A DNA stretch of 64,000 nucleotides from a virus (IMGVR_UViG_3300010234_000007:1-64000); one strand, 5' to 3'; counted from the stretch's first letter, positions 1 through 2,339 are shown. The notes: a model not told the origin generated them from the sequence alone. Translations and numbers: made by a program.

Positions 1-139
1 GCGCTGTCTGTCCCCGGCGTGGTAAATTCAATCTAGCGTAGGACTCAAGATACGCGTATGCGTTATTGTTGATCTCCACTCCGATCCACGGGTGTTCGTG
101 CGCGTCGCCCGAAAAAATGTACAAAGTTACCTTACGCAT
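1..139 (-). CDS. Mini-protein family member, runs off window (MRKVTLYIFSGDAHEHPWIGVEINNNAYAYLESYARLNLP...)
   Basis: Hand translation; ATG overlaps upstream stop; recognisable paralog of 132..302 at DNA and protein level. Confidence 0.75.
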   Translation of the reverse strand, partial: MRKVTLYIFSGDAHEHPWIGVEINNNAYAYLESYARLNLPRRGQTA

Positions 140-302
140 CAGGACGTTTCCTTGTGAATTGCAAGTCCTCGCGGTCTGTATTGGTGTGGGTTGGGAGAAA
201 CAACCTACCATAGGACTCAAGATACACAACGGATTCGTCCATAGATTCCACGGCGATCCACTTGGGGTCAGACTGAGATAGGTACAAGTTCACCTTACGC
301 AT
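132..302 (-). CDS. Mini-protein family member, 56 aa (MRKVNLYLSQSDPKWIAVESMDESVVYLESYGRLFL...)
   Basis: Hand translation, below ORF-track cutoff; coupled to both neighbours; shares TAGGACTCAAGATAC (39-53 / 211-225) with adjacent ORF. Confidence 0.75.
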   Translation of the reverse strand: MRKVNLYLSQSDPKWIAVESMDESVVYLESYGRLFLPTHTNTDREDLQFTRKRPDA

Positions 303-474
303 CACGATGCCTCGCGATTATCAAAGGGCGATCTATAGGCACGCGTGGGATAGCAGTAATCTGCAGCTTGCCTGTCGGGCGCAAAAACACGTTAGGGACA
401 TCATACGCGCAGATCAGCGTAAGCCCGGGACTCCATTGGGCGCGCTGCAGCTTCATTTCAATCTTCATGCTCAT
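295..474 (-). CDS. Mini-protein family member, 59 aa (motif VFLRPTGKLQI)
   Basis: ORF track 295..501, start reassigned to ATGA overlap at 474. Confidence 0.7.
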   Translation of the reverse strand: MSMKIEMKLQRAQWSPGLTLICAYDVPNVFLRPTGKLQITAIPRVPIDRPLIIARHRDA

Positions 475-635
475 TTCACCCGCCTTAACCTGAGATCGCA
501 CGGATTTGCGGGGACGGCGTAGCGCCTCAAGCGGCCATCAGCTTTAATGTAAATAGTCACAACACCCTTGCGATTGATGTACACATCGTCTGGCGGGGCT
601 CTGCCTAGTATCGCATACTCGTAACTACTTGTCAT
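471..635 (-). CDS. Mini-protein family member, 54 aa (motif IYIKADGRLRR)
   Basis: Hand translation MTSSYEYAILGRAPPDDVYINRKGVVTIYIKADGRLRRYAVP...; overlaps neighbours. Confidence 0.7.
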   Translation of the reverse strand: MTSSYEYAILGRAPPDDVYINRKGVVTIYIKADGRLRRYAVPANPCDLRLRRVK

Positions 636-801
636 GGAGCCGCCTCACGAATTGGTACACCACTTCACCATCGCGAAAGGCGCTAAGCCACAGCGTGCCA
701 TGAGAGAACAGCATGACGGGCGGGTTCAACCGGCCCGGCGTCCGCAAGAGAACATTCCCACGTGCGTTGCGGTGTAGTTTTATGATTTCGGTCTTTAACA
801 T
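625..801 (-). CDS. Mini-protein family member, 58 aa (motif VMLFSHGTLWL)
   Basis: ORF track 625..837, second Met. Confidence 0.65.
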   Translation of the reverse strand: MLKTEIIKLHRNARGNVLLRTPGRLNPPVMLFSHGTLWLSAFRDGEVVYQFVRRLHDK

Positions 802-829
802 ACGTTCTATTATGGCAGAATATCCAACG

Positions 830-1228
830 TTACGCAAGCAGGACGAAATTACGCACCGGTATCAGGCACACCACATCCTTGTCCAGCGGGTCCCCGCGAT
901 CACGACGGTGTAACACAGCCGTATCATACATCGTTTCCACCAACACTACCCCCAGCGCATCCTCCCATTGAACTGCCAAAAAAGCCGCGGTGGGCTCATC
1001 CATCAAGGTGGCGATTTTGGCGCGATCCACCGCGAGGGTCGGGTACTTCTCACGCGCGTTATACCGCCGTTTCACCTCAGCCACCGCGACACGCACACCC
1101 TCACGCCAGAACTCCACATCATATGGGGACTCAGTCGAGGTGATGCAGGCCTCAGCACCTATATGGACGCCGAGTCTTGAAGCTATACGCGCCTCGTTAA
1201 GACGGTCAGCGGCTGTTTCGTACAGCAT
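830..1228 (-). CDS. PD-(D/E)XK-fold nuclease-like protein
   Basis: YDVE...AEVKRR motif and size typical of small phage restriction-endonuclease-like proteins. Confidence 0.65.
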   Translation of the reverse strand: MLYETAADRLNEARIASRLGVHIGAEACITSTESPYDVEFWREGVRVAVAEVKRRYNAREKYPTLAVDRAKIATLMDEPTAAFLAVQWEDALGVVLVETMYDTAVLHRRDRGDPLDKDVVCLIPVRNFVLLA

Positions 1229-1391
1229 TGCGCTTTAGGCGTAGCGAGGAGGTGGTATGGAGATAGGGGCGGTATACCCGCAGCGACCCGTTACTGCATA
1301 CTATATATGCATACAGAGCATCGTCTGATATCAGACAGAGCGAGGCCCGCGTATCTGTTATATACAGCCTCACGGTGATGTGTGTGCTCAT
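1206..1391 (-). CDS. Mini-protein family member, 61 aa (motif YIVCSNGSLRV)
   Basis: ORF track; ATGA coupling. Confidence 0.65.
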   Translation of the reverse strand: MSTHITVRLYITDTRASLCLISDDALYAYIVCSNGSLRVYRPYLHTTSSLRLKRNAVRNSR

Positions 1392-1549
1392 TTTTGGTAA
1401 CGCATTAGACGGATGGGCTCATTATATGTGTAGGTGAGAACGCGAAGCGCCCCTCGGTCTGTGAGATATGCAGTGGGGCGTATTGTCCCGTACCACGCCA
1501 GACCGACGTATTTCAGGATGGCAAGCCTGCATACATGGAATTTGTTCAT
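1388..1549 (-). CDS. Mini-protein family member, 53 aa (motif AYLTDRGALRV)
   Basis: Hand translation MNKFHVCRLAILKYVGLAWYGTIRPTAYLTDRGALRVLTY...; ATGA overlaps at both ends. Confidence 0.7.
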   Translation of the reverse strand: MNKFHVCRLAILKYVGLAWYGTIRPTAYLTDRGALRVLTYTYNEPIRLMRYQK

Positions 1550-1620
1550 ACTCGTATCACGATATGTTTGCGCCCCATCTGAAAAGCAGAGATGCTGACA
1601 TTGCGCAGTTGGGTGGTCAT
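1546..1620 (-). CDS. 24-aa coupled micro-ORF, possibly a truncated family member (MTTQLRNVSISAFQMGRKHIVIRV)
   Basis: ATGA overlap at both ends exactly fills the gap. Confidence 0.45.
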   Translation of the reverse strand: MTTQLRNVSISAFQMGRKHIVIRV

Positions 1621-1799
1621 GTCTGCGCTGGCTTATGGGTCATCCTCATAGGCGGGTCGTCGGGATGGCGTTGCGCTTTCCTGATGCCGCCTGAGGAATA
1701 CAAATACACGAGCGGTATTTCGTTGGAGCCCTCCAAAGCGATGAAGGTGTAGTCCGGGCCGCTCACTAGACACAGGTTAGTCATAAGATACTCAATCAT
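1617..1799 (-). CDS. Mini-protein family member, 60 aa (motif VYLYSSGGIRK)
   Basis: ORF track 1617..2051, start reassigned to ATGA overlap at 1799. Confidence 0.7.
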   Translation of the reverse strand: MIEYLMTNLCLVSGPDYTFIALEGSNEIPLVYLYSSGGIRKAQRHPDDPPMRMTHKPAQT

Positions 1800-1981
1800 A
1801 GCCGCTTCCAGCACGAAGTCACCGCAAGGCGGCGCTTTAGGTGCGTGGGGCCGGGCGGGAAGGGCACCGAGGTTCTCGTCAACCGCCCGGAGGGATGCAA
1901 CATCGCGAGGATGTCGCCCTGCACGACAGACAACCCGATAATTCCAACGCTGCCGATGCGGAATATACGGAGGCCGGTCAT
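1796..1981 (-). CDS. Mini-protein family member, 61 aa (motif AMLHPSGRLTR)
   Basis: ORF track; ATGA coupling. Confidence 0.7.
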   Translation of the reverse strand: MTGLRIFRIGSVGIIGLSVVQGDILAMLHPSGRLTRTSVPFPPGPTHLKRRLAVTSCWKRL

Positions 1982-2163
1982 CGTGGAAGGCCTGTGGGTA
2001 GTACTTGAATGGCGCGGGTGATGGTGAACTCGCTGTTAGGGGGAACCTCACCCAGCCTCAACGTCCCCACGGGGGTTAAAGCCGCGATGGCATACTCGCG
2101 CTCAATACGTAAACTCACTAGCTCACTGTCAATGATGTGGCAGAGGTTGAGCGCTGTAGTCAT
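1978..2163 (-). CDS. Mini-protein family member, 61 aa (motif AALTPVGTLRL)
   Basis: ORF track; ATGA coupling. Confidence 0.7.
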   Translation of the reverse strand: MTTALNLCHIIDSELVSLRIEREYAIAALTPVGTLRLGEVPPNSEFTITRAIQVLPTGLPR

Positions 2164-2339
2164 CGTGGGGGGTGTACTTCAAAGGTGCGGCTGAACACAA
2201 ACTCGGTGGAGGGTCTGGTAGCTCGCAATCTTAATTTACCGTTGGCGCGCAAGATCATCAGAGCTACCTTAATGCCCGTGCGCACACTCACCGTCCCGCG
2301 GCGGGGGACATGGCACAGGTGGATATCCATGGGGTTCAT
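2160..2339 (-). CDS. Mini-protein family member, 59 aa, first gene of the array (motif MILRANGKLRL)
   Basis: GGAG SD 7 nt upstream of ATG at 2339, directly after the tRNA-like leader. Confidence 0.7.
   Translation of the reverse strand: MNPMDIHLCHVPRRGTVSVRTGIKVALMILRANGKLRLRATRPSTEFVFSRTFEVHPPR

Follow-up and report, generated by a model that had tools for sequence, protein, structure and literature searches.

A tandem array of diverged small-protein genes behind a structured leader RNA in an uncultured tailed phage

Results

A run of small genes at the end of the phage record

The virus record IMGVR_UViG_3300010234_000007 (72,329 bp) comes from an uncultured tailed phage with a genome of ~70 kb. 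Its first 64 kb (positions 1-64000), here called the window, begin with a densely packed array of very small genes on the minus strand, which is the subject of this work. The array consists of 13 consecutive open reading frames (ORFs) encoding 53–67 residues, designated m01 to m13. Ten are complete in the window, m11 is cut at its left edge, and m12 and m13 lie beyond a terminal duplication by which the first 2,473 bases of the window are identical to the far end of the record (IMG/VR class "direct terminal repeats"). The only gene within this run that is not a member is a PDDEXK_14 nuclease-like gene. We find that the array is real and protein-coding, and that its members form one family. An initial annotation of the window had described at least ten highly diverged, paralog-like mini-proteins in one operon. 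Every ORF that it named is present on the minus strand where it had been placed, and the family extends further, to 13 tandem members, an isolated member (u01) and a probable additional one (m14).

The 13 genes are joined by six ATGA overlaps and by overlaps of 8, 8, 11, 13 and 23 nt, with only two gaps, of 67 and 28 nt, and the ATGA and 8–11-nt joins reported initially are all found (Table 1). This tight packing through stop–start overlaps is that of a tandem array of mini-protein paralogues. A good AGGAG ribosome-binding site precedes m01 and partial ones precede several other members; m02, m03 and m06 have none, which suggests that they rely on translational coupling.

Table 1 Features of the array and its surroundings. 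Positions are those of the window, except where "genome" denotes the full record.
Feature	Position	Strand	Remarks
m01	2160..2339	-	59 residues; motif ILRANGKLRL; upstream AGGAG Shine-Dalgarno sequence; leave-pair-out p 0.001
m02	1978..2163	-	61 residues; ATGA overlap with m01
m03	1796..1981	-	61 residues; ATGA overlap with m02; leave-one-out p 0.004
m04	1617..1799	-	60 residues; ATGA overlap with m03; weaker member, p 0.02 against shuffles, 0.035 against decoys
m05	1388..1549	-	53 residues; preceded by the only sizeable gap of the array (67 nt)
m06	1206..1391	-	61 residues; ATGA overlap with m05
PDDEXK_14 gene	830..1228	-	132 residues; not a family member; 23-nt overlap with the end of m06
m07	625..801	-	58 residues; two copies of the turn motif (LLRTPGRL, MLFSHGTL)
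m08	471..635	-	54 residues; 11-nt overlap with m07
m09	295..474	-	59 residues; ATGA overlap with m08; weaker member, p 0.016 against shuffles, 0.047 against decoys
m10	132..302	-	56 residues; 8-nt overlap (ATGCGTAA) with m09
m11	1..139 (first 46 codons); complete 67-residue gene at genome 69792-69995	-	8-nt overlap with m10
m12	genome 69625-69795, outside window	-	follows m11
m13	genome 69437-69637, outside window	-	follows m12
u01	3488..3682	-	64 residues; isolated member just upstream of terS; leave-one-out p 0.002; family HMM 62.8 bits, a score obtained after u01 had been picked by its motif and included in the HMM
m14	genome 67855-68028, outside window		probable member before terL; 11 bits, the top non-member score of the family HMM
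Candidate sigma70-like promoter	2486..2514	-	TTGACT-17-TACTAT; from consensus scan; heads the array
Structured leader RNA	2347..2484	-	~135 nt; closing stem, GAAAGCAGA-loop hairpin, variable middle, hairpin GCCGG-AGUAGCGC-CCGGC; ends ~20 nt before the m01 start
Second leader RNA copy	40894..41052	-	
Exact terminal duplication	1..2473		covers the leader, m01-m10 and part of m11; second copy at genome 69857-72329
GGGTCCCAT repeats	2531..2666	-	three exact copies, with spacings of 64 and 63 bp; flanked by the terS stop on one side and the duplication boundary (2473) / array promoter on the other
Small terminase subunit, terS	2872..3462	-	Pfam Terminase_2, E 1.8e-15; phrog_51
Large terminase, terL	genome 66215-67825, outside window		the portal gene also lies outside the window

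The small ORFs are coding and belong to one family

By a codon-usage score trained on the long genes of the phage, the annotated frame was preferred for 13 of 14 ORFs, and G+C content is higher at third than at second codon positions (GC3 > GC2), as elsewhere in the genome. BLASTP among the members gave two clear paralogue pairs, both of them neighbours: m10/m11 (49% identity, E 4e-14) and m01/m02 (35%, E 1.7e-8). In these young pairs the ratio of nonsynonymous to synonymous substitution rates (dN/dS) was 0.27 for m10/m11 and 0.52 for m01/m02, with synonymous sites near saturation.

Because the other pairs are individually weak in BLASTP, relatedness across the family was assessed with profiles. 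In leave-one-out tests with a profile hidden Markov model (HMM), the p-value of every one of the 14 members tested was ≤ 0.02 relative to 500 shuffled versions of its sequence and ≤ 0.047 relative to decoys, namely 170 real ORFs of 45–75 residues located elsewhere in the genome. Combined by Fisher's method, these tests give p 1e-14 to 1e-18, a value that is indicative only because the tests have training data in common. When both members of a pair were removed, p was still 0.001–0.045. Smith-Waterman z scores averaged 1.59 over 105 member pairs and 0.10 over 225 member-decoy pairs (Mann-Whitney p 2.5e-13), and every member except m12 has at least two partners above z = 2. When the family HMM was run on all six-frame ORFs of the genome, members scored 40–69 bits and nothing else exceeded 11 bits. 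Homology among adjacent same-strand ORFs of under ~80 residues, for which three ORFs would have been sufficient, thus extends here over 13 ORFs.

The motif hydrophobic-L-x-x-x-G-x-L begins at residue 27–33 in all 15 members, and each of the motif sequences quoted in the initial annotation is among them. All four Gly codons are in use in the motif Gly column, where m11 has Ala instead, and five Leu codons are in use in the Leu column two residues further on, where m04 has Ile. Since these columns are kept through varied synonymous codons, selection acts on the protein and not on a DNA signal. Column statistics pick out a V/I-x-L/V/I strand, the turn motif itself and, at the C terminus, a hydrophobic-x-[RK]-[RK] motif as three conserved elements; in the last of these, 13 of 13 members have a basic residue at the first [RK] position. 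The remainder is highly diverged, with a mean column identity of 24% in the family alignment.

At the DNA level, likeness is left only at the m09/m10 and m10/m11 junctions (a 26-nt repeat, 85% identity) and in one 15-mer of m10/m11. The claim that the last pair alone can be aligned in DNA therefore stands for the junction repeat and the 15-mer, with the correction that m01 and m02 are also clear paralogues at the protein level. The family probably grew by tandem duplication, as was proposed initially, since its two closest pairs are neighbours and one of them still has junction DNA in common. A lineage-specific expansion of one small protein family, with 13 tandem copies and one or two scattered ones, appears from these sequence comparisons to be the best explanation of the locus.

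The probable member m14 is the last gene of a short operon, preceded by genes for a 117-residue protein and then for a repressor-like protein of 67 residues (phrog_362). An intrinsic terminator (8-bp stem followed by TTTTTTT; genome 67771-67790, minus strand) separates m14 from the start of terL. With this strong terminator at its 3' side, m14 is unlikely to be co-transcribed with terL. Upstream of u01 lie three overlapping small ORFs on the minus strand, u02 (3679-3888, 69 residues), u03 (3876-4052, 58 residues) and u04 (4040-4240, 66 residues), the last two both terminating in RWQR. As candidate members, u02 and u03 were rejected on chance-level scores with the family profile (p about 0.5); u04 is marginal (p 0.014 and 0.042).

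The family is an orphan in public data

Pfam and PHROGs hold no family for any of the 15 members, Pfam at E ≤ 1 returning just two unrelated sub-threshold matches, and the ESM Atlas yielded nothing usable for them. A profile-seeded word search of 5.8 billion protein clusters brought back only four of the window's own proteins. A HMMER pass over 1.84 billion representatives recovered eight proteins encoded by this genome; no further small protein was among the matches, the rest being long repeat proteins of the propeller type. Seven of the 15 members are missing from public gene calls, so gene callers do miss such ORFs, as the initial annotation had expected of several of them.

No relative carrying the array was found by DNA comparison with 50,697 phage records or by PDDEXK- and TerL-based scans of IMG/VR viral and JGI metagenome contigs. 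No member was detected by the family HMM in four related reference phages, in Otagovirus left ends or in 1 Mb of contigs carrying the leader RNA, and in eight fetched loci it gave a single match. That match, at E 4e-4 among 1,455 ORFs, is to a frame of 43 codons on the strand opposite the portal gene in phage DSL-LC04 (13086-13217 of the fetched locus, minus strand). We regard it as a false positive, which illustrates how noisy so short a profile is and calls for caution with weak matches. By these searches, which span about 15 billion public proteins, the family is an orphan without a detectable relative.

Models suggest a four-strand beta-meander with a basic tail

AlphaFold2 with the family alignment modelled m01 with strands at residues 6-11, 16-21, 24-30 and 36-39 and a disordered tail (predicted local distance difference test score, pLDDT, 59.6), and m10 with strands at 5-8, 16-20 and 23-28 and short bridges at 34-35 and 46-47 (pLDDT 59.8). 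The two models agree in strand order, an agreement to be read with their low confidence and with the nearly identical family alignment behind both. They suggest a four-strand beta-meander followed by a mostly basic tail, a fold that is probably all-beta. The single small beta scaffold of the initial annotation is thus matched in strand order and in the C-terminal tail, at low confidence. Eleven of the 15 members have a predicted isoelectric point (pI) of 9–12 and most tails carry a net charge of +2 to +6; m02, m04, m10 and m11 are acidic or neutral.

Foldseek against the PDB gave no match at E ≤ 0.001 (best E 1.3), and the best hit of the VIA wide structure search (Z 3.7) was not significant. 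The insignificant neighbours from both were mostly single beta-propeller blades, superposed at 2–3 Å root-mean-square deviation over ~40 residues. Sequence searches pointed the same way. In the search of 1.84 billion representatives, hundreds of propeller proteins were matched through 2–11 blade-sized stretches each, and nine that were checked were PQQ-like/BamB, WD40, RCC1-like and DUF5122 proteins. The PDB sequence matches of the family profile were designed "Bagel" propellers and PLL lectins. The large totals of these matches arise from the summing of identical repeats; a single blade contributes only 14–15 bits, with an independent E of 0.2–0.5 even against the small PDB set. Alignment with hhalign to a PQQ-type double-blade alignment reached a probability of 84% (P 8e-6), a P-value inflated by the choice of target after the search, and was matched or beaten by one of 200 column permutations. 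With a blade HMM, two of the 15 members (u01 and m06) scored above the 99th percentile of shuffles, u01 being the most blade-like.

Compared with PQQ-like/BamB blades (PQQ_2 PF13360, Beta-prop_ACSF4 PF13570; "Bagel" PDB 8PRJ, 8PRS), ~25 residues align in a strand-turn-strand-NG turn-strand pattern ("TIYVGSNDHYLYAINPNGKLK" versus "AALAILQPNGQLRRW"), and the predicted four-strand antiparallel meander is alike. The defining features of propellers differ. No Pfam propeller model matched any of the 15 members at E ≤ 1. Each ORF encodes one unit followed by a stop codon, whereas such propellers have 4–12 units per chain, a propeller being defined by four or more blades in one chain or by a ring-closing oligomer. 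The array units carry an extra tail of 13–30 residues, and per blade they show a marginal similarity, which is no better to one propeller lineage than to several unrelated others. From these comparisons the core appears blade-like in pattern; the resemblance to propeller blades is not convincing, and membership of the propellers fails on their defining features.

Derivation of the array from a decayed multi-blade propeller gene was rejected: the ATGA junctions are precise and the units have their own starts, their period is 158–250 nt as against 120–135 nt for blades, and dN/dS is below 1. A CsrA- or AbrB-like fold, suggested by the motifs of those proteins, had no Pfam or PDB sequence support at E ≤ 1–10.

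A conserved leader RNA heads the array

Directly upstream of the leader RNA that precedes m01 is the candidate promoter, and this position next to a conserved RNA supports its reading as a promoter. The second copy of the RNA in the window has a TATACT box at the matching place. The initial annotation had called the leader tRNA-like. ARAGORN found no tRNA anywhere in the window, and Rfam (15), its C4 model included, gave no match to the leader at gathering score or at E ≤ 1. The leader is structured, with a closing stem that abuts a 5-bp hairpin in a tRNA-minihelix-like stack. Among 26 aligned copies, compensatory changes are abundant in the 7–8-bp closing stem and in the first hairpin.

A 20-mer of the leader, AGCCGGAGTAGCGCCCGGCC, occurs in at least 119 IMG/VR contigs. 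Among the matches listed, the GAAAGCAGA-loop hairpin lies 41–206 nt upstream of the 20-mer in 81 of 121 occurrences, and an ORF with a median length of ~73 residues starts a median of 45 nt downstream of the RNA element. Fifteen other loci with the same element likewise had no Rfam match at the element. On sequence, the leader looks like a member of an unclassified, widespread phage RNA family that heads small-gene cassettes and is lacking from Rfam.

Complements of 10 nt to the conserved GGAAAGCAGA loop of the leader lie at 1581-1590 and 18509-18518 (both minus strand), the first in the m04-m05 gap, ~30 nt before m05. A C4-like cis-antisense control was considered and rejected: among 121 occurrences of the RNA in other contigs, within the matches listed, loop complements are not commoner downstream than on control strands, so the site at 1581-1590 is probably due to chance. 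In the c4-icd-ant operon of phages P1 and P7, the leader is processed to an RNA that controls the translationally coupled ORFs behind it. The array is alike in having a 5' structured RNA on a polycistronic transcript and small coupled ORFs, features that are read here from the sequence. It differs from c4 in that its leader has no Rfam C4 match, its loop sequences, instead of being immunity-specific, do not vary among more than 100 phages, and its loop complements are not enriched downstream.

The array occupies a variable slot between the terminase genes

The gene within the array is a PDDEXK_14 family member: it matches Pfam PF24579 at E 5.4e-19 over positions 6-137 of the 140-position model, scoring 69.2 bits where the gathering cut-off is 25, and it also matches phrog_7141 (E 2.6e-15). 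Its homologues were found in 141 Pseudomonas phage records at 33–36% identity. In the Otagovirus records inspected (phiPsa381 and PN09), small genes form a leftward operon at the left end of the genome, with the homologue as its final gene; in phiPsa381 this homologue lies partly within the annotated 526-bp direct terminal repeat. These positions are comparable to that of the array gene here and suggest that the PDDEXK_14 family is linked with genome ends.

The array fills the interval between terS and terL. In distant relatives terL lies within 0.7–0.8 kb of terS, and in closer relatives the interval holds unrelated small genes, seven of them in phage DSL-LC04. The interval being short in the former and filled with other small genes in the latter, the array is accessory cargo in a variable slot and not part of the core packaging machinery. 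The nearest reference phages by TerL are only 49–55% identical and comprise uncultured marine and lake phages, HTVC023P/HTVC027P-type pelagiphages, and Synechococcus and Planktothrix phages. The best TerS relative among 5.8 billion protein clusters is 35% identical, and the best TerL match used for the question of turnover 53%. On these identities the phage has no close counterpart in public data.

Between terS and the array, three GGGTCCCAT repeats lie within 136 bp and are the sole copies in the 64 kb (0.59 matches expected in the whole window); the third belongs to an 11-bp palindrome, ATGGGTCCCAT. They may be terminase-binding sites of a pac or cosB-like kind. The inner boundary of the terminal duplication (2473) lies ~5 nt past the point where transcription from the array promoter is predicted to begin, and the outer boundary truncates m11 past codon 46.

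Elsewhere the window encodes a primase-helicase and virion proteins. A 3,235-residue ORF is a polyvalent protein with ADP-ribosyltransferase (ART) and LPD38 domains by Pfam; the idea of an N4-like early region with this ORF as virion RNA polymerase was dropped on that assignment. The leftward small-ORF/terS operon is separated from a rightward operon, which begins at 5380 and consists of overlapping small genes, by ~1.1 kb without a convincing gene (4250-5380), and long minus-strand ORFs at 5472-7692 resemble shadows of plus-strand genes.

Discussion

Judging by the anatomy of the locus, a single transcript from one sigma70-type promoter would carry the tRNA-minihelix-like leader RNA and then all 13 ORFs, whose translation would be coupled through overlapping stop and start codons. 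Each protein is predicted to comprise a ~40-residue core of four antiparallel beta-strands with a strictly kept tight turn (hydrophobic-L-x-x-x-G-[RK]-L) and a proline-rich tail that varies among members, has a net positive charge in most of them and terminates in hydrophobic-x-[RK]-[RK]. One scaffold would thereby display differing surfaces and tails. We propose that the array encodes a set of diversified, translationally coupled small beta-scaffold binders, made from a promoter of the host RNA polymerase and aimed at host proteins or defence systems, a proposal to which we give a chance approaching even; its fold, timing and targets are inferred. It draws on the parallel with the blocks of small early or host-takeover genes that other virulent phages carry at their ends. 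In Bacillus phage SPO1, a host-takeover module of 24 small genes fills most of the 13-kb terminal redundancy (PMC10531801). The array resembles that module in being a small-gene cluster of unknown family in a terminally repeated part of the record, under a host-type promoter, here a candidate one. The SPO1 genes do not constitute a single paralogue family, as those of the array do, and are served by several promoters; their early expression and host targets have been shown experimentally, whereas for the array both are predictions.

Several observations weigh against the binder proposal or parts of it. The consensus scan for promoters returned five sites against 3.3 expected, no better than chance on its own. 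An anti-defence locus of the anti-CRISPR (Acr) type is not indicated, with no helix-turn-helix or Aca-like gene in the operon and no Pfam or PHROG match for any member; the nearest repressor-like gene (phrog_362) lies in a different transcription unit from the array. The structure models of m01 and m10 are of low confidence and have no significant fold match, and the basic members fit nucleic-acid binding as well as protein binding. The least secure members, m12, m04 and m09, are weakly tied to the family. The 2,473-bp duplication could reflect the assembly overlap of a circular map, the physical ends being a candidate reading only; if the ends are physical, m11 is truncated in the left-hand array copy, and the right-hand one would lack a promoter as long as the genome is neither circularised nor concatemeric.

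The basic character of most members raises one of the two main alternatives, that they are small nucleic-acid binders, a beta core with an Arg/Lys-rich tail acting on DNA or RNA in DNA condensation or protection during packaging and ejection, or in RNA chaperoning. The high pI values, the mostly positive tails and the conserved C-terminal [RK]-[RK] would suit such a function, as would the location between terS and terL beside putative terminase-binding repeats. We consider it unlikely nonetheless, given that four members are acidic or neutral, that 13 diverged copies are hard to square with generic charge neutralisation, that the array is headed by a sigma70-like promoter of its own and is not found in relatives whose packaging genes are the same, and that no known DNA- or RNA-binding family was matched at E ≤ 1. 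The other main alternative is that the extreme divergence is that of a near-neutral, selfishly expanding cassette, in which duplication is easy at overlapping junctions, perhaps aided by a nuclease, and most copies drift to loss without individual function. The PDDEXK nuclease gene in mid-array, the raised dN/dS of m01/m02, the failure of m12 to find a partner at z > 2 and its poor fit to the family, and the lack of homologues, which suggests a short evolutionary life, all speak for such a cassette. Drift of this kind is nevertheless difficult to reconcile with 13 open frames with intact starts and precise overlaps, with motif columns kept through synonymous change, with dN/dS below 1 in both measurable pairs, and with lengths confined to 53–67 residues, and we rate it as quite improbable.

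The propeller matches bear on two further explanations. The proteins might be free-standing single blades whose coupled products assemble into homo- or hetero-oligomeric propellers; ATGA coupling would suit equimolar subunits, and the profile matches to hundreds of propellers, "Bagel" designs and PLL lectins, the hhalign result, and the four-strand meander of the models with its insignificant blade neighbours are in keeping with this. Lone blades are a very doubtful reading in view of the weak per-blade scores, the post hoc hhalign target, the lack of a Pfam propeller match, the mere two members beyond the shuffles' 99th percentile, and the length of the units, 53–67 residues with tails in place of 40–45. 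Single WD40 blades expressed alone, moreover, stayed unfolded in one systematic test (PMC6805158). The breadth of these matches could also mean that there is no family at all, and that unrelated or partly spurious small ORFs have in common a generic beta-turn pattern and similar lengths. The initial annotation had itself named a generic turn as a finding that would undo its claim, and the outcome is mixed: the core does resemble a generic beta-hairpin or propeller-blade pattern, one that recurs in many unrelated propellers, yet the members still match each other better than they match shuffles or decoys. The false-looking antisense match in another phage and the insignificance of most individual pairs fit a chance collection. 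Against it stand the strongly positive leave-one-out and pairwise tests, the motif in the same register in all members with a second conserved motif in the tail, two unambiguous paralogue pairs, and the gap between member scores and those of every other ORF in the ~70-kb genome. We regard this explanation as largely refuted and its remaining probability as slight.

The array adds an orphan, probably all-beta family, encoded behind a conserved structured RNA, and it illustrates that gene callers skip about half of such genes. If the proteins are host- or defence-directed binders, the array would amount to a compact natural library of mini-binders built on a single scaffold. If instead the blade reading were true, the array would bear on the origin of repeat folds, as a natural counterpart of the "single-blade" stage proposed for propeller evolution, and on phage-built combinatorial binding platforms. 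Its practical value is modest at present, the phage being uncultured and without relatives for comparison. The leader RNA family, which heads this and many other small-gene cassettes, may matter more than the array itself.

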